From: a virus
DNA: 21,770 nt
UHGV virus genome: UHGV-1845973
Direction: 5' to 3' (one strand)
Shown here piece after piece: positions 1 through 20,116 of the stretch. A program made the position numbers and the translations under genes. The notes below the pieces were generated by a model, which was given only the letters and a program-made list of their open reading frames with translations, was not told the DNA's origin and ran no database searches. How positions within the stretch are numbered: position 1 is the stretch's first letter; every line of letters starts with the position of its first letter.

Positions 1-12
1 GGACATACCTCG

Positions 13-969
13 TTAACCGATTGCTTTCAGGCCATGAACAAGAGCAAGTTGCGGGTCATCCGCCACGAAGAAACGGTCATCACGAATATTAACTTGCTCG
101 CGAATTGCATCTGCCACCAGCGGTGCGCCACCACCGATCACCATGACATGCGTATATCCTTTAAAGTCGCCAATCACATCAAGAACGCGGGTACGCAGAC
201 GGTCAATGCTTGCGGCAATGGCCTTTTTCACATCACCAATCGCTGATGGGTCATTGATATTGTCGTTCAGATAATCTTCATCGTGGCGGTTAATAATGAG
301 CTGATCAACATTGTAATTGGACGTTTCGGTATTGGCTCTGGCAAGTGCTTGCCTTACTTCCCTGGTAACCAGAGAGACGCCAAGATTCGAATCGCCAAAA
401 ACACGGGAAACTGCCGTCATTTGCCCGGCGACCATTGAAACATCAAGGGTAGTTCCACCCAAATCGACGATAAGAACAGAATGGGCAGGGTTCAGATTGT
501 CGCACAGGCCAATTCCTGCCGGAATAGACTCCGGTCGTACCGTAACTTTCTTAATCGTGAACACATTGCCTTTATTCAACGTGACGGGGCGCATAAGACT
601 GGATTTCTTGCGCTCGATGTTATCGAGATTGTATTGCGCGTCGTCGTCGTAAAACTCCGCCAGAGGCAGCGTGACCACAATTTCTACTTCCTGCGGCTCA
701 ATGCCACTTGTCAGCAGGGCATGGTGAACAGCCAGGACGTTAAGCGGGCTGTATTGCCATTCCACGTTATTCGTCGGCAGAACATCTGGCGAGATCAAAT
801 CATACGAATACTTTTCGTCGTCAATGACATAGTTAAACGGCTTGCCAGCACAAAATGTTGCTGACCATCCGCGCTTAAAGCTGTTAGGGCTGATGTGAGT
901 GCGAGTTTCCCCGTCGTGCTCCCACAGCATTTTGATATTGGTTGAACCATCATCGATAAAAATGCGCAT
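13..969 (-). CDS. parM: ParM/StbA-family actin-like plasmid segregation ATPase (type II partition)
   Basis: N-terminus MRIFIDDGSTNIK... and C-terminus ...LVHGLKAIG match the ParM family as I recall it (R1 ParM begins MLVFIDDGSTNIK). ATG at 969 is preferred over the GTG at 993 used by the ORF track because GGAG lies 7 nt upstream of it. Stop TAA at 15..13. Confidence 0.85.
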   Translation of the reverse strand: MRIFIDDGSTNIKMLWEHDGETRTHISPNSFKRGWSATFCAGKPFNYVIDDEKYSYDLISPDVLPTNNVEWQYSPLNVLAVHHALLTSGIEPQEVEIVVTLPLAEFYDDDAQYNLDNIERKKSSLMRPVTLNKGNVFTIKKVTVRPESIPAGIGLCDNLNPAHSVLIVDLGGTTLDVSMVAGQMTAVSRVFGDSNLGVSLVTREVRQALARANTETSNYNVDQLIINRHDEDYLNDNINDPSAIGDVKKAIAASIDRLRTRVLDVIGDFKGYTHVMVIGGGAPLVADAIREQVNIRDDRFFVADDPQLALVHGLKAIG

Positions 970-993
970 CTTCTTGCTCCACTTCTGAGACAC

Positions 994-1190
994 ATTTGAG
1001 AATCAAAATGCAATTTTAAAAGAGAAGCACCCAAAAATCCACACCAAAAGAGATAATAAAGAGTGATTATTGAGTTCATTTTGAGAATATCTTAATCACC
1101 CAATGAATGATGGTCTGACAGTGAGATTTATTTGAGGATGAATTGAGAATACAAAAATATTCCGAAATTTTACTCTCAGTTTGAATGACG
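994..1190. repeat. Candidate parC-like centromere/promoter region upstream of parM with TTGAGAAT-like repeats
   Basis: AT-rich intergenic region between divergent parM and the PAAR gene. TTGAGAAT at 996, 1081 and 1143; related 8-mers at 1070 (ttgagttc), 1121 (gtgagatt) and 1132 (ttgaggat). Two clusters show exact 11-bp spacing (1070/1081 and 1121/1132/1143), as in the 11-bp iterons of R1 parC. Confidence 0.4.
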
Positions 1191-1235
1191 AAATAACAAA
1201 GTGATGACAATAGGAGGATAACCAGGAGGTGAAGA

Positions 1236-1520
1236 ATGAGCGCAATAGCCACCAGCGACACCCTTTGTTCTGGTCACGGAGGATTTCCGCCGCGACTGGT
1301 AGCTGAAACTGTTCCCTGGTTCACCGTTAACGGTAAGCCAATTGTTGTAGATGGTGCCATGTTTCCCAGTCACACTGACGGTAACAGTGCACATCCAGGG
1401 GCAGCTGTATCGACGCGAGTATGGTTTTCGATAGGTGGAAAGGGAGTTGTCTGTGTAGGCGATCCGCTTTCTTGTGGTTCTGTTATCGCCAACGGCGAGG
1501 ATATTTTTCAGGTTGCATAA
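1236..1520 (+). CDS. PAAR-domain protein (spike-tip sharpening protein)
   Basis: 94 aa. Contains the three PAAR-type motifs: SDTLCSGHGG, FTVNGKPIVVDG and VGDPLSCGSVIANGEDIF. Strong RBS AGGAGG 7 nt upstream of the ATG. Confidence 0.7.
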   Translation: MSAIATSDTLCSGHGGFPPRLVAETVPWFTVNGKPIVVDGAMFPSHTDGNSAHPGAAVSTRVWFSIGGKGVVCVGDPLSCGSVIANGEDIFQVA

Positions 1521-2326
1521 TGCTTGATTCAATAGGTGAAGTTAAAGCCTTCAAAATTCTGTCAGATGCCGGTATCTCTACACCAGAATCTATAACCATA
1601 AGCCGGGCAGCGTCTGTAAAAGCCTCATCACTCGCCAGCGCCATACAGGGAATAGTTCACGCCGATAAAACCTATCCTGATTCTGTTTCGGCCTGGACTA
1701 CTCAATTGCTTGGCTTTTCTGAACAGCTAAATGAGGCCAGCAAAGCGTCTTCATTACTGGCTGATTCTCTTTCCCCATACACCAAGCCATCAGAGCTGTT
1801 ACAGATGAAGATTGGCTGGGAATGCTACGTAAAAGGTAACGAGCTGACCCCCATACCTGCTTTCGCCCTTGTTGAGGGGATGGGGAATGTTTCCATTCCG
1901 CAATCTCTAACGGACGCATTGACGGCGCTAAAACTTGATGCTCTGAAAACCGCCATGAACGCCATTAACGCAAAAATAGAAGCTGCCGGAAGTGCTGGTG
2001 GTGGTGATAGCAATGGTGGACAGGGTGGTACTGGGGGCGCTCAGGCTCCAGTCATTACTCAGGATGAAATTGATGCTTTACGGGAAGCAGTGACAGCCGC
2101 CGAAGTTTTACTCTCCGAAATTAACTCAGCAAGTGAGAGTGTCGTAGCCCTTACAGGTCGCATTAAAACGTCAACCACTCAGGCAACCAAAGGTTTAGAA
2201 AACGCTGTCGCCATCACGTTAACTGGTTCTCTACTGGATGATGCAGTAATGAGTCCGGCAATCAGTTTAATCATGCCACAAGGCGTTATCGATGCGCTCC
2301 AAAAGAACACCAAAAAGGAACAATAG
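1520..2326 (+). CDS. Hypothetical protein, translationally coupled to the PAAR gene
   Basis: ATG at 1520 overlaps the PAAR stop (TAATG). 268 aa with a Gly-rich linker (AAGSAGGGDSNGGQGGTGGAQAP) separating an N-terminal ~160-aa part from a C-terminal ~90-aa part. No motif recognised. The ORF track start at 1421 overlaps the PAAR gene and is unlikely. Confidence 0.55.
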   Translation: MLDSIGEVKAFKILSDAGISTPESITISRAASVKASSLASAIQGIVHADKTYPDSVSAWTTQLLGFSEQLNEASKASSLLADSLSPYTKPSELLQMKIGWECYVKGNELTPIPAFALVEGMGNVSIPQSLTDALTALKLDALKTAMNAINAKIEAAGSAGGGDSNGGQGGTGGAQAPVITQDEIDALREAVTAAEVLLSEINSASESVVALTGRIKTSTTQATKGLENAVAITLTGSLLDDAVMSPAISLIMPQGVIDALQKNTKKEQ

Positions 2327-2381
2327 CAACACCACTTAGGAACACAAAAGGATGTGAATTGGTACATGTTTAACACCAAAA

Positions 2382-2855
2382 ATGAACCTGAAGAGGATGG
2401 TTTTGAAAAAGATAATTTTGATTGTAATTGCGCTTTTAGCCATTTCTGGAATTTACCGAACAACGACGGCAGTTATCGAACACATCAGGTATGTCCGATC
2501 GCTTGAAGACTCAAAATCACAACTGGAAAGCACGAACAACACGCTTTCTACCGCATTACAGTTAAGTGAGAACGCTCGCTCAGCCATGCTGACCGAAAAC
2601 GAAAGAATTAAAGCACTGGAAAAGGAGTACCAGCGCAAAACAGCAGAACTGAATGCCAACCTAATCAAACAACGAGAGGAAAGCCAGAATGAAATCACTC
2701 GCCTTGAAAATGCGTTACGCCGTGCTGGGATTAACGATGTGCGTGTGCCTGATGACGTTATCAGGATGCAGCGGGAACGGGCAAAAGCCATCAACCAGCG
2801 TGCCAGTGAAAATTACCGTAGAAGCCACCAGCAAGCCGCAGGCAAATCTGATTGA
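2382..2855 (+). CDS. Rz-like i-spanin (type II inner-membrane protein with coiled-coil periplasmic domain)
   Basis: N-terminal basic stretch followed by one hydrophobic TM segment (IILIVIALLAISGIY), then a long charged helical region rich in E/R/K/Q/L. A lipoprotein gene is embedded in the +1 frame, which is the spanin hallmark. The alternative start at 2397 is not excluded. Confidence 0.6.
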   Translation: MNLKRMVLKKIILIVIALLAISGIYRTTTAVIEHIRYVRSLEDSKSQLESTNNTLSTALQLSENARSAMLTENERIKALEKEYQRKTAELNANLIKQREESQNEITRLENALRRAGINDVRVPDDVIRMQRERAKAINQRASENYRRSHQQAAGKSD

Positions 2856-3021
2856 TTACTCCCCTTGTTTAGTGCCAGAGGACACGCCAGTGCTGTTAAA
2901 CAAGTATCCGACATACGCTGAACAGTTATTCAGCACGATCGACGAATGCAACCAACGAAACGCACTGAATAACCAAAAAAACAGGGAGATTTGGGAAGGG
3001 AAGGGGGATCAAGGCTCCTGA
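2689..3021 (+). CDS. Rz1-like o-spanin (outer-membrane lipoprotein), starts inside the Rz gene in another frame
   Basis: Signal peptide with lipobox: MKSLALKMRYAVLGLTMCVCLMTLSG|C. Mature part is Pro/Thr/Ser-rich. RBS GAGAGGA 8 nt upstream of the ATG. It begins within Rz and extends 166 nt beyond the Rz stop. Confidence 0.55.
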   Translation: MKSLALKMRYAVLGLTMCVCLMTLSGCSGNGQKPSTSVPVKITVEATSKPQANLIDYSPCLVPEDTPVLLNKYPTYAEQLFSTIDECNQRNALNNQKNREIWEGKGDQGS

Positions 3022-3467
3022 AGCCAGATGTCCTGGCTGTCAGCTTCTTCGAAACCGTGACAGACGTTAAAGTCACTCAAGCGATACTGACGCTGACGGC
3101 CTCTATTTCGCTCATGCCAATGCATGTATCCACCAGCAAATGCCAGCGGACAATCACTATAGTCTATGTAACCAATACCATTCCCCAAACGTGCTTCGCG
3201 CGCACCGGCTTTCCAGGACAGTAGAAAAGAGTCACGATCCGCCAGCATAACAACAAAATCGTCCGGATCTCCGATACAGTGAAGAATACCTGCCTTACAT
3301 AACTGCTTGAGCGCTTTGGGCTGGCTCAGGATGTCTTCTCCGTAATACTGAAAACAATCATCAACAACAGCGGGATAGCCTGCCGGGGGATTCAGGCTGG
3401 TTGGTATAGCTGACGCGATCGCCAGCATTAAGCGATATTGTGTTTTTGATGGGTTAACGTGACTCAT
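3009..3467 (-). CDS. Hypothetical protein (downstream gene of an unknown two-gene module)
   Basis: 152-aa ORF with ATG start, 16 nt after the stop of the upstream ORF on the same strand. Its 3-prime end overlaps the convergent Rz1 end by 13 nt. No motif recognised with confidence. Confidence 0.5.
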   Translation of the reverse strand: MSHVNPSKTQYRLMLAIASAIPTSLNPPAGYPAVVDDCFQYYGEDILSQPKALKQLCKAGILHCIGDPDDFVVMLADRDSFLLSWKAGAREARLGNGIGYIDYSDCPLAFAGGYMHWHERNRGRQRQYRLSDFNVCHGFEEADSQDIWLQEP

Positions 3468-3483
3468 TTTGTCCCTTGTTTAC

Positions 3484-3918
3484 TCATTGTCGCCATGCAT
3501 TTTTTAACTCAGGAATATCTGCCATTTCAATTAACTTGCGAAGTCCAGCACTGACTTTCCCATTGCCAACCATAGCAAGCCAATCTCTTACAGCTTTCGG
3601 CATGTAGAGCGTTGCAGTTACCGGCTCTTCAACCCTGGCAGGACATCCGCATACAGGCCATTTAATTGACTCCATAACTTCGGATGCCGGGGTGAGGGCG
3701 GGGACATTGAGTATATCTCTACCAGAAAACTGGATAACGATCCGTTCAGCGAGCGAGAGTATCTCACTTTCGGCAAGAATTGATGCCAACTGCGCCTCAA
3801 CAAGAAAGCGACTTGTTGTGTTCAGAGAGTGGCTCTTAGCGCCATTTTTATACGAAACAAAGATTCGATACGCCATAACTCTAATGATTTGTGTTAGAAA
3901 ACTAAAATTAAACCACAT
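3484..3918 (-). CDS. Hypothetical protein with a C-terminal segment resembling a ribbon-helix-helix DNA-binding motif (upstream gene of the module)
   Basis: ORF open from ATG 3918; an alternative ATG at 3876 would give MAYRIFVSY... (131 aa). C-terminal segment TATLYMPKAVRDWLAMVGNGKVSAGLRKLIEMA fits a beta-strand/helix/G-x-G turn/helix pattern. Neither start has a convincing RBS. Confidence 0.5.
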   Translation of the reverse strand: MWFNFSFLTQIIRVMAYRIFVSYKNGAKSHSLNTTSRFLVEAQLASILAESEILSLAERIVIQFSGRDILNVPALTPASEVMESIKWPVCGCPARVEEPVTATLYMPKAVRDWLAMVGNGKVSAGLRKLIEMADIPELKNAWRQ

Positions 3919-4034
3919 AACAACATGTGTGTTAATAGATTTTATTTTACTAAACCTATTGACTAAATCACAAAGTAGGTATTGTTAGTCCGTCAAAAGA
4001 ACCTTCACGCCGCGCCCGAATTTAGGGCTTAACC

Positions 4035-5732
4035 GTGAATAAAAACATTCAGCCAGCTCGTGATCGCGAGCGCGAGATTATGAATCGGGCGGCAAGCGTC
4101 ATGGCTATGACCGTCGATCCGACCACCGATGCAGCAGGCAACATGATTGCTGACCAGGCAGTAATGATGGAAAACCTGGATAAAGCAATCCAGAAAGTGC
4201 CTATGTTTGAAGGCGTAAATCCAGAGGTCGCTCGTCAGATCACTGGTGGGTGGGCTATGTCTCTGCATGAGTATAAACGTCAACATGGTCATTACCCGGC
4301 AAGTGACATCCTGGCGAACGCACACATGGCTCTTGAACGCCTAATGACTGAATGTGCCAGTGATACCCACGAAGGCACGGGTAAGGCAATGTTTGAGTCT
4401 GTCGCGCAATCAATGCGTAGCTCTGACGGCGTAATGAAAGTTGCTCAATATGCTGCTCTAATTCTGCCTGCCTCTCTGGGCGCTGCTACCAGTGATGCCT
4501 GTACTTTTGTTCCTTGTGATCGTGACGAGTCAAATATTTATGAACTGGTCAACGTAGCAGGCACAAAATTCGGCACCTTCAAACAAGGTGACGAACTGAA
4601 TATGCAGTCAGCTGGTGTTTATTCTCAAATGAAGCGCCTGTATACCCTTTCCACTAAAGGGGATGGCAGCACCAAAACCTTCCAGTTCGACATCCAAAAT
4701 TTTGAGGGACAATCCTGCCCGCTTCGCGCTGGTTATAGCAAACTGCTGATCAACCGCAAACCGTCCAAAGTTGACGACGGCGATGGCAACCTTTATTTCA
4801 ATGCTAAAGACAGCAAAGGTAAAGCTTTCTCAGCGACTGCCAAAGTCGCCTATGACACTGGTGTCATTGACATTACATTTACCCAGGCTCCGCCAGAAGG
4901 TACTGAAATTGCTGTTCAGGTCGAAATTAACATCGAGCGCAATCCAAGCCTGATTCCTGTGATCAACCAGGCTATGCGTAAGTACGAAGTTCGTCCGTCC
5001 CAGTACGTAATTGCTTCCGAACACACGGTAATGTCCGCATCCGATTTAAGCCGTGAGCACGGCCTTGAATTAGCGGCACTTCAGTTCTCCGCGATGCGTA
5101 ACTGGATCTCCCATGAAACCGACATCATGCGTCTGCGCACCCTGGTATTCCATACCGTTTATGGTCGTGAATTTGATGTGGCTCTGCCGGAAGCTCAAAA
5201 CTATGAGTCCTGGGTCGGCCTCCTGCGTCACGTAGTAAACGCTCTGTCTCAAGAAATGGCAAATCGTACCCTGACAACGGGTATTCGTGGCGGCTTTGCT
5301 GGTGGTGACGCCGCGAACTTCCTGCGCTCTCTGCCTCCACAGCACTTCCAGATCGCACCAGGTTACGTTCAGTCGCCGTATGTACAGTACATCGGCACCC
5401 TGTTTGGCACGATTCGTATTTACGAAGTGCCGCAACCTGTCTGTGAGCAATTCCAGGCACAGGGATATGACTTCGGGCTGGATGACATCTTCTTCTATGG
5501 GCGTGGCGAAGGCATCGGTAAAGCCGGTCTGATTGCTGGTGATGCAGTCCCAGCAATCCCTTACGTGCACGAAACCAATCCGTCTCTCGTTAACCGTACC
5601 ACTCTCTGGGGCAGTGCCATCAACGAAGTACATCCTCGCAACGGTGAAAACTACTTCACCCGCCTGCGTCTGACTCGCGCCAAAGAAGGTGCTATCGACA
5701 TGCTGACAGGCAAGGTTAACGAAAAAAAGTGA
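4035..5732 (+). CDS. Putative major capsid protein precursor (large head protein)
   Basis: 565-aa ORF with GTG start, the first gene of the long + strand structural operon, immediately upstream of an Ig-like protein gene and the sheath gene. The functional call rests on position and size only. Confidence 0.55.
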   Translation: MNKNIQPARDREREIMNRAASVMAMTVDPTTDAAGNMIADQAVMMENLDKAIQKVPMFEGVNPEVARQITGGWAMSLHEYKRQHGHYPASDILANAHMALERLMTECASDTHEGTGKAMFESVAQSMRSSDGVMKVAQYAALILPASLGAATSDACTFVPCDRDESNIYELVNVAGTKFGTFKQGDELNMQSAGVYSQMKRLYTLSTKGDGSTKTFQFDIQNFEGQSCPLRAGYSKLLINRKPSKVDDGDGNLYFNAKDSKGKAFSATAKVAYDTGVIDITFTQAPPEGTEIAVQVEINIERNPSLIPVINQAMRKYEVRPSQYVIASEHTVMSASDLSREHGLELAALQFSAMRNWISHETDIMRLRTLVFHTVYGREFDVALPEAQNYESWVGLLRHVVNALSQEMANRTLTTGIRGGFAGGDAANFLRSLPPQHFQIAPGYVQSPYVQYIGTLFGTIRIYEVPQPVCEQFQAQGYDFGLDDIFFYGRGEGIGKAGLIAGDAVPAIPYVHETNPSLVNRTTLWGSAINEVHPRNGENYFTRLRLTRAKEGAIDMLTGKVNEKK

Positions 5733-11363: not shown

Positions 11364-12224
11364 TTAATCTGTTGGTTTAAGTTTCGGATTCCGAGAGTGA
11401 ACGATAATGAAGTTTTCACGACCTTGCTTTTCAATGGTGCAATCGAGATAACCTATTGTTTTTAACTGGTCTATAGCTTTTTTTATCGTTCTGTTTTGCT
11501 CACTTACCGATGACATCAAGGCTAATCTTTCACGTATTCTGGCAAATGAAATAGGTATTGGACGTGCCGGGAGGCTTTCTATAAAGGTATATATGGCCTG
11601 GGCTGCTTCTTTTTTAGGTAAAGCGCGAAGTGCGTGTTGCTGTAGAAGCACCCGATAGTCTAGCTGGAAGATTTCCCATAACTTGGAATCAGCCTCCAGT
11701 TCAACGACATCTGTTTCAAAGTCAAAATATCCCGTTTTAAGCAGGCCAGTATTGTAGCTTCCACGAGCACTTTTCCCTCTTTTGAATGAGATGCCTTTGT
11801 TGCGTAACCGACCTAAAGAATCGTGGATCGTGTTTCTTAATTTCCCATCAAGTCGCTTAGATGGAAATCCGCACGCCTTTGCAAATTCTTGAAAAGAAAG
11901 GCGAATTGTATTCGATGATAAGCCATACTTGCTAAATGAGTAGATTACCCCAATCCAGACTTTGAAATCAGTATCCATGTCCAAGCGAGGGCCAGTGATC
12001 TTGATGTTGTCGTAGCCTTCTGCTTGAGCTATTTCCAATTTGGAAAAAACAGATGATGCATCTATCTCGTTGTTTTCACCCTGTTTTTTAGTTGGTTTAG
12101 GGACGAAAACACCAAGCCGCATAAGTGCGACAGGTTGAACAGTATTGTTCGAATTAACTGTTAATTCTTTAGCCTTGCTTTCAATGTCAGCATAAAGAAT
12201 ATCAGAGATAAATGACTTATCCAT
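11364..12224 (-). CDS. repA: RepA replication initiator, P1 / IncY-type iteron plasmid family
   Basis: 286 aa beginning MDKSFISDILYADIESKAKELTVNSN..., which I recognise as P1 RepA-like, and flanked on both sides by P1-type 19-bp iterons. ATG at 12224; the ORF track adds one upstream TTG codon. Confidence 0.9.
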   Translation of the reverse strand: MDKSFISDILYADIESKAKELTVNSNNTVQPVALMRLGVFVPKPTKKQGENNEIDASSVFSKLEIAQAEGYDNIKITGPRLDMDTDFKVWIGVIYSFSKYGLSSNTIRLSFQEFAKACGFPSKRLDGKLRNTIHDSLGRLRNKGISFKRGKSARGSYNTGLLKTGYFDFETDVVELEADSKLWEIFQLDYRVLLQQHALRALPKKEAAQAIYTFIESLPARPIPISFARIRERLALMSSVSEQNRTIKKAIDQLKTIGYLDCTIEKQGRENFIIVHSRNPKLKPTD

Positions 12225-12262
12225 CAATAAGTTACCGTCATGTTGTGAATAAAGTTTACGAC

Positions 12263-12495
12263 AGTGGATATCCGGCTTTTTTTCCCGTCAGCACACATCC
12301 TACATCCCGTCAGCACACATGTAAAACCCTCCAGCACACATATTTTTCCCGTCAGCACACATCGTTCTCCCTCCAGCACACATCTGAATAGTGGTTAAAG
12401 CCTTATGTGGCGCGGCCTGAAGAGCTACGGGATCTATTTGGTACTATATGGATCTAATCAGGATCTATATATTGGATCTATCCTGTGGATAAAAA
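12263..12495. other. oriR-like replication origin: iterons, GATC-heptamer cluster and DnaA box
   Basis: Perfect DnaA box TGTGGATAA at 12484..12492. Four GATC sites inside GGATCTA heptamers at 12431, 12451, 12462 and 12475. A degenerate DnaA-like box AGTGGATAT at 12263. This DnaA box / methylatable GATC repeats / 5 iterons / repA layout matches the P1 R origin as I recall it. Confidence 0.7.
12283..12385. repeat. incC-like origin iterons (5 direct repeats) covering the repA promoter region
   Basis: Five copies of CCC[G/T][T/C]CAGCACACAT at about 12283, 12305, 12326, 12348 and 12368, regularly spaced at ~21-22 bp and all in the same orientation, immediately upstream of repA. Confidence 0.85.
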
Positions 12496-13414: not shown

Positions 13415-16400
13415 ATGGATATCAGCCCATTAGTGACGTTGAACAATTACCGCAATGGCGAGCACTCCATATGTCAAAAGCCCTGGAAGAAAAATACAAA
13501 GCTCAAGCCGGGAAACGTTGATCGCGCTGGTAAAAGAGAGGTTATTTTGAAAGAGAATAAAGACCGTATCGCAATAATTGACGCTATTCAGGAAGCGAGC
13601 ACAAACGAACTTAAAGCTCTTGCTGAGGTAAAAGACGCCATTCTTTCTGGGGCAAGCACCATAACTCAACAGGACGAAAGGCAAGGCAGAGTTAGCAACA
13701 GACTATCACGCAGGCGTAAAGAGTACGAGCAAAGTACATCTGATAGCGTTAGAGATGTCCAAACTAACCCATATAAAAAACGTCTCCCTGCTAAAAAGGA
13801 GAGGGCACCGATAAACCAAACCGTGGACCGCTCTATCGTTGCAACGAACACACCAGAAAGTGTTCGCTCCGTGCAATCACGTCAGACCATCCGAAAATCG
13901 GACGGTTTTATACCGGTAGCTGCTAATTCAGCCCCTCTTGAACCACAATCCCCCCAAAGTCTAAAAGGCCCGCTGCGGGATAGTAATGGACGTTTTGTAT
14001 CCCAAAAAAGCAATGAGGATGTAGCCAGAAAAAAAGAATTGCAGAACGCACGTAAAGCCGACGCAAAATTACAAGCTGGCTTTCTCAGAAAGCTAGGTTC
14101 CATTATGGGGGTAGATGGCAATCGGTCTTCCAGTGAAGAGTCTTTAACAAATGCAGCTGGTGTCGGTGCTGGTGGGCCGTTCTGGATGGCGGCTCGTGGC
14201 ATGTACGACATAACTAAAGAGATCACAGGTAAAGCAGAATCTCTTAAAGAATGGGTAGAAAAGGGGAAAAAAGAAACATCAACCTCGAAAGCAATATCAC
14301 CAGTAATTACTTATCCGGCGGCGGTGAATTCTCAAAAAGCAACATCTGCAAAAGCGTTCAATAACGCTGTTGAGACAAAATCCGCACAAGCAGTAGAAGA
14401 GCAAACCAAAATCCTTCAGACCAATGACAACAAAATAATTGATGGTCTGGAAAATGTTTCTGACGAGATAGTTAAGCTTCGGAAATCAGTGTCTTCTGGA
14501 AATAAGTTCGGCTTAAGTGATCTCTGGAAAAATCGAGCAAGCAGAAGAAATAAAATCAATATTGGTGATCAGACGGGAAAAAATAAACGGAACAAATCGA
14601 AAAGGAAAGGACGCAATCTTGGGAAAAAAGCACTCTCCGCTGGCGAAAAAGTTGCTGCCGGTAGCGCTGCGGCTGGCACTGGTGTCGGAGCAGCAAAAGT
14701 AGTTAAAAATAAGATCAGCAAACCCAAAGATGTAAGCACTATCAGCGATACATCAAAGGGGATTGCAAAGGAAACAAAAAATACTGCTAAGGCCGTGAAG
14801 TCAGCTGGTGTTGTGGCTGAAGATGCCACCATTAAAACCGGCGAAGCCATTGCAAAGAAAAAAACTGAATCTGTAGCCCTCAAAAGTGCTGCAAAAATAG
14901 GTGTTAAATCAGCAGCATCCACAGCGGCAAGAGCGGTCCCTATCATCGGTTCGCTGGCAATGGCTGGATATGACGCCATAGATGGTTACACAGATACAGA
15001 GGCGCAAAAGGCAGCCTTTGGATTAAGTGACGATAATGCTGTATCCGAACAGCAAAAAACGGCTTACGCAACAGCTAATGTGCTCGATATGGGGGGCTTG
15101 GTGTCGGGCGCAACGAACTTGATAGGGAAAGGAATTTCTGCGCTAGGATTTGAAAGAGCAGGTGAAAAACTTCAGAATTTTGATACCGGAGATATTGCTC
15201 GTGGTGTTAACGGCGCGGTAGATATCACCAAATCTGTTTTTGGTAGCCTTAAGGATACATTTTTATCCACTGATGAAAACACGAAACAAGTAAAAAAAGC
15301 TGTTGAAGACGGCACCAAAAAAACTGTCGATGCGATTCATTCTCTAGGTGAACAATTACAAGGTGGGCGTAATGGCGAGGATGGAGTTGGTGAGCACGGG
15401 TATACTTCTCCAACTGAATTTAGTGCACCTGCCAACAACACCATTGCAGCGGATCTGAATATTGGCGGCAGCAACGCTAAAAACCGCAATTACCGAAATA
15501 ATAATCTCGGCAATCTTGTTTTTGCCAACCAGGAAGGGGCGACGCTGGAATCGCCAAATGCAAAAGGTGAACAACGTTTTGCGCGATTTAACACACCTGA
15601 AGAAGGGATCAGGGCACTGGCAAACCAGGTTTCCAGCTATTACAACGGCACCAGTGCCGCAGCGGGATATCAGAAGTTACAGACGGTATCCAGCATCATT
15701 TCAAAATGGGCACCGCCAAATGAGAACAATACTAACCAATATATTGATAACGTCAGTAAATATCTTGGTGTATCGCCTAATGAAAAAATAGATGTCAGCA
15801 AACCAGAGGTTATGACGCAATTAGTTCGTGCAATTGCGACGAAAGAAGGCGGAAATCCGGCAGTTAATAATGAGTTCATTAAGAACGCACTTGGAGCATT
15901 TAACACAAACACTGGTCGATGGGAGGGACAATTCTCTGACGAAACATTGGCGCGGATTAATAAAATTCAGAAAGAAAATGGTGGTCAGCTAATTGCCCGC
16001 GATTCGCAATATAGTGTTGGTCGCAAGGTAAAATATGCTAATGGAAAATCTCCAGCTCAACCAGTTTTGAATGCCGTTCCGACAGCAACACAACAGCCAA
16101 TTGAGGTTGCACAACATGCCCAGGCAGTCAAAAAGCCACAAAAAACAGGTAACCAACCACAACCGATTAATCCAGAGAACGCTGATGTTAATACCGGCTC
16201 TCCATCGAGTTTGCTTGAGCGGTTAATCACAATAAATGAAAGCGGAATCAGTGGTGCAAGTAATTTATTTGGCGGCGCGGCTACCAGCCTTGCTGGAACA
16301 AGTCTGGACCTGGTAAAGGATTTTGCGTTGGCTACTTCGTTTGGTTCTATATCTTCGCTTTCCGAAAAAGCGAAAGGAATGGATCAGGCTCTTACTGAAA

Positions 16401-17359
16401 AGATATCCGGCTTAACCGGTAAATCTTTTGGATTTAAAATAGCTTCTCAAGTGGCTGATATCGCAACAGCCATACAACAAAAACGCACTGTTAATCACGA
16501 TACAGAAATCATTGATCTACTTCCGGGAGATCAAGTATCCCCTTCTACTCCGAAAACCCCACAGCAGGAGCAGGCTCTAGCAATCAGCCAGGCTATGGAG
16601 GGCTTTTCATCTGCAGCGCCAGCACCGAAAACCCCACAGCAGGAGCAGGCTCTAGCAATCAACCAGGCTATGGCGGGAGCTGCGCCAGTAGTTACCTCTG
16701 GAAAACGAACTATCACGGCACCAAGTGATGTGCAGATTTATGACAACGGCTACAAGGTGGTTACAGGTGAGGATAAGAGCTTCTTTGGTTCGCTATTTGA
16801 TTCCACGGTGTCAGGGCTTAAACAGACAGGAACCGCAGTAATTCCTGCCGTTGGCGATAACCTTTCACGACTTGTTGGGGGGATTGATAGTACAGGGATA
16901 TTGAACGATCTTGTAATGCAGTCTACTGGGCAGAATAGTGCGATTGCGCGAGCTATTAGCCCATTAACAAGAAATGTTGGAGACTGGCTGAATGGGGGGA
17001 TTCAACAAACCGCTAATAGCATTAGGGGAATAGCAACTGGTGCCAATAACGCCATATTTGGCTCTGCTTCAGCTGTGCAAGAACCTTTTCTTGCTATGCC
17101 GCCACAACTCCCTACTGTAACCGATCTCGCACGAAGCGGAATAAGACAACCATTAACTACTGACACTATAAATAACGATCCTGCTATGTTGAAGGCGCTG
17201 GATAACATCTGCTCTATCCTGAACGATCTGCTGAATGTGAACAAGAACAATACAAAAGGCGATCCGGATAATGTTGTCAAAACATCGCAGCCGCAGCCGC
17301 GACCACGTGCGAGCACAACTATTAATGACCAGTCGCTGGATGCTCTGCTTGAGGATTAA
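13415..17359 (+). CDS. Tail tape-measure protein with an embedded globular domain
   Basis: 1314 aa. Long Ala/Lys/Gly-rich low-complexity helical regions, central hydrophobic Gly-rich segments, and a position between tail genes and baseplate genes. A globular segment (about nt 15480..15900) differs from the rest. Confidence 0.8.
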   Translation: MDISPLVTLNNYRNGEHSICQKPWKKNTKLKPGNVDRAGKREVILKENKDRIAIIDAIQEASTNELKALAEVKDAILSGASTITQQDERQGRVSNRLSRRRKEYEQSTSDSVRDVQTNPYKKRLPAKKERAPINQTVDRSIVATNTPESVRSVQSRQTIRKSDGFIPVAANSAPLEPQSPQSLKGPLRDSNGRFVSQKSNEDVARKKELQNARKADAKLQAGFLRKLGSIMGVDGNRSSSEESLTNAAGVGAGGPFWMAARGMYDITKEITGKAESLKEWVEKGKKETSTSKAISPVITYPAAVNSQKATSAKAFNNAVETKSAQAVEEQTKILQTNDNKIIDGLENVSDEIVKLRKSVSSGNKFGLSDLWKNRASRRNKINIGDQTGKNKRNKSKRKGRNLGKKALSAGEKVAAGSAAAGTGVGAAKVVKNKISKPKDVSTISDTSKGIAKETKNTAKAVKSAGVVAEDATIKTGEAIAKKKTESVALKSAAKIGVKSAASTAARAVPIIGSLAMAGYDAIDGYTDTEAQKAAFGLSDDNAVSEQQKTAYATANVLDMGGLVSGATNLIGKGISALGFERAGEKLQNFDTGDIARGVNGAVDITKSVFGSLKDTFLSTDENTKQVKKAVEDGTKKTVDAIHSLGEQLQGGRNGEDGVGEHGYTSPTEFSAPANNTIAADLNIGGSNAKNRNYRNNNLGNLVFANQEGATLESPNAKGEQRFARFNTPEEGIRALANQVSSYYNGTSAAAGYQKLQTVSSIISKWAPPNENNTNQYIDNVSKYLGVSPNEKIDVSKPEVMTQLVRAIATKEGGNPAVNNEFIKNALGAFNTNTGRWEGQFSDETLARINKIQKENGGQLIARDSQYSVGRKVKYANGKSPAQPVLNAVPTATQQPIEVAQHAQAVKKPQKTGNQPQPINPENADVNTGSPSSLLERLITINESGISGASNLFGGAATSLAGTSLDLVKDFALATSFGSISSLSEKAKGMDQALTEKISGLTGKSFGFKIASQVADIATAIQQKRTVNHDTEIIDLLPGDQVSPSTPKTPQQEQALAISQAMEGFSSAAPAPKTPQQEQALAINQAMAGAAPVVTSGKRTITAPSDVQIYDNGYKVVTGEDKSFFGSLFDSTVSGLKQTGTAVIPAVGDNLSRLVGGIDSTGILNDLVMQSTGQNSAIARAISPLTRNVGDWLNGGIQQTANSIRGIATGANNAIFGSASAVQEPFLAMPPQLPTVTDLARSGIRQPLTTDTINNDPAMLKALDNICSILNDLLNVNKNNTKGDPDNVVKTSQPQPRPRASTTINDQSLDALLED
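16550..16680 (+). repeat. Tandem ~75-bp duplication inside the tape-measure gene
   Basis: CCGAAAACCCCACAGCAGGAGCAGGCTCTAGCAATCA[G/A]CCAGGCTATGG[A/C]GGG occurs at 16550 and again at 16625 with two mismatches (protein repeat KTPQQEQALAI[S/N]QAM[E/A]G). Confidence 0.75.
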
Positions 17360-20051: not shown

Positions 20052-20116
20052 CAACGGAAATCACAAACTGAGCATACTCTCCTTTGGTTCATTGCTTATG
20101 AAGGGGCTATGTTCGT

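Follow-up and report, generated by a model that had tools for sequence, protein, structure and literature searches.

Organization of the locus

The DNA analyzed is a stretch of 21,770 nucleotides from the viral genome UHGV-1845973, which is referred to here as the window. The region exhibited 97.8% identity to the Escherichia phage D6, which identifies the element as a phage-plasmid of the D6 type, distantly related to P1. Plasmid records matching the region numbered 114 and came from Escherichia, Salmonella, and Shigella; two E. coli plasmids were identical to it at 100%. A sequence-only reading of this DNA had proposed a gene for a PAAR spike-tip protein of 94 residues joined to a second gene for a 268-residue protein, located next to a partition gene and spanin genes. 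Both open reading frames and the TAATG overlap between them were present as claimed, and the neighbors were confirmed to be the partition gene ParM and a pair of overlapping spanin genes, of which the o-spanin gave a weak match to the Pfam family O_Spanin_T7 and contains the lipobox LSGC in its translation (Table 1). In the overlap, the stop codon TAA of the PAAR gene (1518–1520) and the start codon ATG of the second gene (1520–1522) have the base A1520 in common. A longer in-frame reading frame of 301 residues begins at ATG 1421, which is not regarded as a real gene since every homolog begins with M-L-D at the ATG of position 1520. Chance can be dismissed as the origin of the two open reading frames because each of them is under purifying selection, as described below. 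The D6 record already labels these genes "similar to P1 gene upfC" and "similar to P1 gene upfB". The GC content of the pair is ordinary and native to the element, and an Rfam scan of positions 1–4100 gave zero matches.

Table 1. Positions of the PAAR–upfB pair, its signals, and its neighbors in the window.
Feature	Position	Strand	Remarks
ParM partition gene	13..993	minus	
Candidate late promoter	1192..1211	+	Motif AATAACAAAGT at 1192-1202, then -10-like GACAAT at 1206-1211
Shine-Dalgarno sequence AGGAGG of the PAAR gene	1224..1229	+	Visible in the sequence, 6 nt ahead of ATG 1236
PAAR spike-tip gene	1236..1520	+	94 aa, ATG start; P1 UpfC ortholog and T4 gp5.4 analog
Putative coupling site	1510..1522	+	SD-like AGGT within the 3' end of the PAAR gene, then TAATG
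UpfB-family gene (upfB)	1520..2326	+	268 aa, predicted all alpha-helical; "tripod" on the spike tip reported for P1
Predicted disordered Gly-rich linker of UpfB	1997..2038	+	Residues 160-173; from pLDDT and variation among homologs
i-Spanin gene, Rz-like	2382..2855	+	Next after upfB in the same orientation; PHROG 214/89
o-Spanin gene, Rz1-like lipoprotein	2689..3021	+	Overlaps the i-spanin gene in another frame; PHROG 456/30284
Wedge genes pmgA, bplA, and 16	from 17365		16.1 kb downstream

The PAAR spike-tip protein

The identification of the 94-residue product as a PAAR protein was upheld by the homology search. The P1 UpfC chain (PDB 9vyi_A) matched it with an E-value of 1.8e-35 and T4 gp5.4 (5iv5_ZA) with an E-value of 1.8e-5, and an E-value of 0.021 was obtained for the VCA0105-type protein (4jiv_D). 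P1 UpfC shares 55% identity with the D6-type PAAR protein, which also matched PHROG 281 (E = 1.3e-28). The score against the Pfam PAAR_motif (PF05488) was 26.4 bits, which is marginally under the cut-off of 27. Its relatives among the phage records consist of the P1/D6 group and the gp5.4 proteins of T4-like phages. The residues H14, H46, H53, and C80 are aligned with those of gp5.4 and UpfC, and they are invariant across 19 divergent copies of the protein. Such a three-histidine-one-cysteine set constructs a metal site near the apex in the published PAAR structures. The length was exactly 94 residues in 45 of 45 distinct copies, and the protein is composed of a single domain with neither an N- nor a C-terminal extension. 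By these sequence criteria, the 94-residue product is a phage-type single-domain PAAR spike tip, which would bind to the blunt end of the gp5 spike in the manner of T4 gp5.4 and P1 UpfC.

The UpfB-family protein and its predicted structure

The 268-residue protein was aligned with P1 UpfB at 27% identity over residues 1–262, i.e., over its full length, and the homology was detected with E-values of 7e-7 against all phage records and 1e-21 locally. The protein is also a full-length member of PHROG 1559, a family of unknown function (E = 4.5e-111). This full-length homology indicates that it is the ortholog of P1 UpfB. The previous statement that it contains no recognizable domain was correct for Pfam and NCBIfam, where searches gave no domain match, and has to be amended by its membership in PHROG 1559 and the UpfB family. 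When 1.84 billion representative proteins were searched exhaustively with a profile, only 73 members of the family were found, nearly all of which are full-length single-domain proteins of ~240–265 residues or shorter fragments thereof, representing one architecture. Only 14 phage records were matched by tblastn with UpfB, all of which were of the P1/D6 type and none T4-like.

A monomer model of UpfB was constructed using AlphaFold2 with an input alignment of 25 homologs, which gave a pLDDT of 89.3 and a pTM of 0.81. The predicted structure is wholly helical, in which an N-terminal helical domain (residues 5–158) is connected by a disordered linker (160–173) to a C-terminal part composed of a 58-residue helix (181–238) and two short helices that follow it. 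The pLDDT values below 50 were limited to this linker and the C-terminal tail. The linker falls within the stretch AAGSAGGGDSNGGQGGTGGAQAP (residues ~155–177), so the Gly-rich linker noticed in the sequence-only reading is real; among homologs it differs in both length and composition, being Gly-, Pro-, or Ala-rich. For this all-helical protein, searches of the PDB found neither a sequence relative nor a fold relative. It was also observed that UpfB is an acidic protein, and that its monomer model contains no independent sign of trimerization.

Two candidate properties of UpfB were examined and rejected. One is membrane insertion, since no 19-residue window reached transmembrane hydropathy; the top value was 1.39, and neither a transmembrane segment nor a signal peptide was detected. 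The other is kinship with DUF7217, a family of helical proteins of Ackermannviridae, which were matched weakly over the full length (E = 1e-3, TM ~0.5) in a Foldseek comparison with viral models. These matches were ascribed to generic helical similarity, and the hhalign comparison between the DUF7217 and UpfB profiles gave a probability of 0.3%. In Serratia phage 3M, ~45 kb separates the DUF7217 gene (3M_074) from the genes for hub and spike, and none of the ten genes upstream of it was a PAAR gene.

Linkage, translational coupling, and selection

The linkage between the two genes was evaluated in 42 loci, which comprise D6, P1, and 40 viral contigs containing a UpfB relative at 99% down to 28% identity. 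A 94-residue PAAR gene was located directly upstream of upfB in all 42, and the two genes overlapped by one base, as TAATG or TGATG, in 39 of them, with a conserved AGGT or GAGGT ahead of the overlap. This conservation indicates that the PAAR–UpfB pair, joined by translational coupling, belongs to the core of the P1-like group as a whole. The PAAR protein was always more conserved than UpfB, as shown by identities of 88 versus 60%, 64 versus 44%, and 52 versus 28%. Between the D6-type and P1, the value for UpfB (27%) is far under those of the other virion proteins (40–57%). The dN/dS values were 0.05–0.06 for the PAAR gene and 0.15–0.19 for upfB, while 0.03–0.05 was obtained for the capsid protein. 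The gene upfB is hence under weaker, relaxed purifying selection compared with the PAAR gene, similar to the i-spanin gene, and its product is functional yet loosely constrained, as expected of helical bundles. Positive selection on UpfB was rejected at the whole-gene level, where its dN/dS corresponds to relaxed constraint.

These data bear on the suggestion that the gene behind PAAR is a cargo or effector slot, or that the pair is the remnant of a secretion-system-like cassette. In type VI secretion systems (T6SS), genes downstream of PAAR genes are often effectors, and it is this general analogy that speaks for a T6SS-like PAAR gene captured by the plasmid together with an effector or adaptor gene. 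The 94-residue protein scored 33.7 bits against the T6SS PAAR equivalog NF033420, whose cut-off is 124, and its closest relatives are phage spike tips. UpfB contains no toxin, immunity, or adaptor domain detectable with Pfam or NCBIfam, including DUF4123, DUF1795, and DUF2169, and no T6SS genes were found nearby. The gene following PAAR encodes the same single-architecture family of ~240–285 residues in every locus, and its presence, position, and architecture are conserved among the relatives while its sequence drifts quickly, which does not resemble a variable cargo. Considering the native base composition and the place of the pair in the conserved core of the P1-like morphogenetic set as well, an origin from a T6SS cassette is extremely improbable, and the cargo and remnant proposals were abandoned.

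Gene order and separation from the baseplate genes

The sequence-only reading had regarded the pair as detached by ~16 kb from the baseplate cluster. This distance holds for the wedge genes; it does not apply to the partners of the PAAR protein, the hub (gene 6) and spike (gene 5), which are absent from the window and in D6 precede the PAAR gene by ~7.3 kb. The D6 interval between gene 5 and the PAAR gene contains hrdC, methyltransferases, glnS, ParA, and ParM, and the corresponding interval of P1 is occupied by ~8.8 kb of different accessory genes. Four more distant UpfB relatives, which show ~19–31% identity to P1 UpfB in local alignments, were examined for their gene order. Two of these lineages exhibited the order 7-24-6-5-PAAR-(0–4 small genes)-UpfB-23-22, in which tblastn searches using the D6 proteins verified the hub and spike, and lysis genes are placed in one of them between UpfB and genes 23 (capsid) and 22 (sheath). 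In the other two, PAAR and UpfB belong to one string of genes, separated by 1.4–3 kb of lysis-like and other small genes. The PAAR gene was located 0–3 kb upstream of UpfB on the same strand in all four lineages. This order indicates that the ancestral layout was one contiguous morphogenetic cluster. Because PAAR follows gene 5 directly in distant relatives, the separation in D6 and P1 is ascribed to inserted accessory and plasmid genes. These insertions, which separated PAAR from spike gene 5, also brought about its position beside the partition genes, and the detachment has no special meaning of its own.

The same comparison helps to evaluate whether UpfB belongs to the following lysis cassette, perhaps regulating the action of spanin or holin from the cytoplasm, such that its adjacency to PAAR is incidental. 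A pair of spanin genes follows upfB in 40 of the 42 loci, and distant relatives possess amidase and small lysis-like genes between PAAR and UpfB or right after UpfB, both of which would suit such a role. However, the lysis genes shift among lineages, being placed before UpfB, after it, or nowhere, while PAAR and UpfB stay between genes 5 and 23. The one-base coupling of upfB is to PAAR, and a 55-nt gap separates it from the spanin gene. UpfB also lacks the transmembrane segment and signal peptide searched for above. A function of UpfB in lysis is thus very unlikely.

A candidate late promoter

The motif upstream of the PAAR gene (Table 1) belongs to the class AATmACAAAsT, of which exactly three copies exist in the window, all on the plus strand and intergenic; since the pattern was derived from those same three sites, their count alone is not significant. 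They precede the PAAR ATG by 44 nt, the capsid gene 23 by 69 nt, and gene R of the tail-fibre operon by 58 nt. Independent support for the motif was obtained from 13 divergent loci, in which AATCACARA was located 41–50 nt upstream of PAAR and was almost absent elsewhere in the 8.8-kb loci. This motif may therefore be a late promoter of the D6 type, consistent with an operon for virion and lysis proteins. The late promoters of P1 were described with a 9-bp inverted repeat for Lpa. Scans of positions 900–4100 for sigma-70 promoters and terminators gave nothing above the expectation from shuffled sequences.

Reported placement of the pair in the P1 virion

The cryo-EM study of P1 (PLoS Pathog 2026, PMC12810830) built UpfC on the trimeric gp5 spike and assigned UpfB to three trimers anchored on the spike tip, which were termed a "tripod". 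The UpfB placement was made by fitting an AlphaFold3 trimer to medium-resolution density and did not include the building of an atomic model; the same paper proposed, as speculation, that UpfB pierces the membrane. The PDB contains no UpfB chain. A preprint of 2025 also modeled UpfC as the needle tip. According to Gonzales et al. 2022 (PMC9024508), P1 UpfC was predicted to be a gp5.4-like spike tip whose deletion is harmless, and LC-MS/MS of P1 virions named 23 structural proteins, including gp6, with UpfC undetected. Both upfB and upfC scored as nonessential in a CRISPRi screen of P1. The P1 knock-outs or knock-downs of these genes plaque normally, which means that no phenotype ties either gene to penetration. 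The tip association that had been proposed for the downstream protein agrees with this P1 arrangement of orthologs, namely UpfC on gp5 and UpfB on the tip (PMC12810830), though UpfC is more firmly established as a virion protein than UpfB.

Proposed role of the pair

The locus can be understood as an operon expressed late by a D6-like phage-plasmid, which would produce the distal end of the tail puncturing device. The 94-residue product would be a monomeric PAAR cone capping the blunt end of the trimeric gp5 β-helical spike, and UpfB is presumed to be translated by coupling right behind it. By orthology with P1, UpfB of the D6-type most likely forms trimers that dock onto the PAAR tip as a "tripod", so that upon sheath contraction these trimers would reach the cell envelope ahead of every other part of the phage. 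The downstream spanins would be lysis proteins encoded on a common late transcript and located outside the tip. A probability of about 65% was assigned to this reading, in which the PAAR cone and the coupled UpfB are products of one late operon, and helical trimers of UpfB sit on the tip as in P1.

An assembly factor offers a different account of the same coupling. UpfB could be a chaperone dedicated to PAAR, which loads it onto gp5 or shields it there, and is then lost. The tight coupling suits a dedicated partner of either kind, and the P1 virion assignment of UpfB is a medium-resolution model fit (PMC12810830). The main text of the paper on the P1 virion proteome (PMC9024508) also contains no mention of UpfB, though gp6 was detected, a hub protein modeled as a trimer of three copies in the cryo-EM paper (PMC12810830). 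The same proteomics (PMC9024508) however missed gp5, gp26, PmgA, and UpfC as well, despite their presence in the cryo-EM structure (PMC12810830). An assembly factor that is lost would moreover leave unexplained the extra density seen at the tip in mature extended P1 virions, into which the UpfB trimer model fits (PMC12810830). The 94-residue protein is also a PAAR without an extension domain, and such proteins, exemplified by T4 gp5.4 and the class 1 PAAR proteins, are not known to require a chaperone, which argues against a dedicated one here. The assembly factor is hence considered rather unlikely, and UpfB trimers on the spike tip are preferred.

A further extension was considered, though doubtful, in which UpfB would be shed from the tip or injected and would be important only on natural hosts, where its three flexible helical trimers on the PAAR cone sense or breach the outer layers of the envelope or enter the periplasm before the tube. 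If this were true, the P1/D6 group would be the first phages with a PAAR-mounted accessory functionally comparable to T6SS cargo. Loose attachment would then account for UpfB not appearing among the proteins of CsCl-purified virions, and its fast divergence would mirror the diversity of host envelopes.

The pair itself is already explained by published work, i.e., the D6 annotation and the P1 cryo-EM. What is new here is the strict linkage of the two genes, the ancestral gene order, the common promoter-like motif, the helical character of UpfB without a solved relative, and the contrast in selection between the two proteins. The role of a dispensable, nine-copy helical decoration of the spike tip is a question that extends beyond this window and is better approached in P1; for structural biologists working on phages, its interest is moderate.

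Comparison with known systems

The UpfC–UpfB pair of P1 is the closest known counterpart of the D6-type pair. Its genes are orthologous (55% and 27% identity), their order and the downstream spanins are common to both, and both pairs adjoin a plasmid replication and partition region. The P1 genes differ in that an 8-nt gap separates upfC from upfB, which has its own ribosome-binding site in place of the one-base overlap. The T6SS modules resemble the P1-type tip in that a PAAR cone on a trimeric β-helical spike bears an extra tip protein. That protein is a variable toxin in T6SS, in contrast to the invariant structural family of the D6 pair, which has no adaptor or immunity gene.

Aeromonas phage ZPAH140, an example of the arrangement canonical for small myophages, possesses a PAAR gene of the same size as that of D6 (32% identity), which follows genes for 208- and 424-residue proteins. 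These are probably the spike and hub as judged from size and position, all being annotated as hypothetical. Unlike in D6, a 116-residue gene comes after PAAR, and no UpfB candidate of ~250 residues was found there. T4 gp5.4 (PDB 5iv5, 4ku0) is similar to the D6 PAAR protein in forming a single cone of ~95 residues with matching His/His/His/Cys positions, and it is comparable to P1 UpfC in that plaque formation was reported without either protein. The location of gp5.4 inside the baseplate gene cluster distinguishes T4 and the listed T4-like phages from D6.

The PAAR Gene and Its Surroundings

All 45 distinct UpfB-linked PAAR proteins among the loci L001–L051 have the same length, each read at exactly 94 aa, although their identities fall to about 30%. 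For the protein of the distant P1-like locus L045, this length is counted from an ATG within a longest ORF of 101 aa. This uniform length points to a very tight constraint on the size of the PAAR cone. In the distant P1-like contigs (L045, L047, and L051), PAAR and UpfB are separated by lysis-type genes, namely Amidase_3 and small membrane proteins, and the intervening genes also include a DUF4160/DUF2442 pair. The PAAR–UpfB interval is therefore a recurrent landing site, in which lysis and accessory genes are repeatedly inserted.

Two convergent genes of PHROG 8101 and 7830 occupy the stretch from the spanins to the capsid gene, and the first of them, at 3009-3467, overlaps the 3' end of the o-spanin gene by 13 nt. 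This overlapping gene was found in the D6-like loci; of the more divergent relatives compared, one locus (L024, 83% identity) also carries it, and most lack it. The two genes look like an inserted pair of the moron type. The motif upstream of PAAR recurs before capsid gene 23 and before gene R, and these two copies are candidate late promoters of the D6 type.

Features identified in the window, or in the contig named
Feature	Position	Strand	Remark
TTGAGAAT repeat	996, 1081, 1143		three exact copies
TTGAGGAT, variant of TTGAGAAT	1132		one copy
PHROG 8101/7830 pair, gene without known function	3009-3467	−	
PHROG 8101/7830 pair, gene without known function	3484-3918	−	
Promoter-like motif (AATCACAAAGT / AATCACAAACT)	3966-3976		69 nt before capsid gene 23
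Promoter-like motif (AATCACAAAGT / AATCACAAACT)	20059-20069		58 nt before gene R, tail-fibre operon
repA	11364..12227	−	
Tandem iterons, n = 5	12279-12384		21-22 bp, core CCCGTCAGCACACAT; directly upstream of repA
sit, tape-measure/transglycosylase gene	13415-17359		1314 aa
PAAR–UpfB interval with intervening genes, distant P1-like contigs	L045 3265-5753; L047 1683-5753; L051 3168-5765		

Partition, Replication, and Tail Genes

The AT-rich spacer of 242 bp between parM and PAAR holds the three exact copies of TTGAGAAT and the TTGAGGAT variant, which are embedded in longer, imperfect 18-nt repeats. Only 1.1 copies of TTGAGAAT are expected by chance in the whole window, and three exact ones lie within 996-1150. 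These repeats upstream of parM likely constitute a parC-type centromere with putative ParR binding repeats. The five iterons are followed by clustered GGATCTAT repeats with GATC sites; together, they form a plasmid origin resembling oriR of P1. The sit product is longer in the window than in the phage D6 record (1260 aa, 3783 nt), and this difference of 54 residues could alter the tail length.
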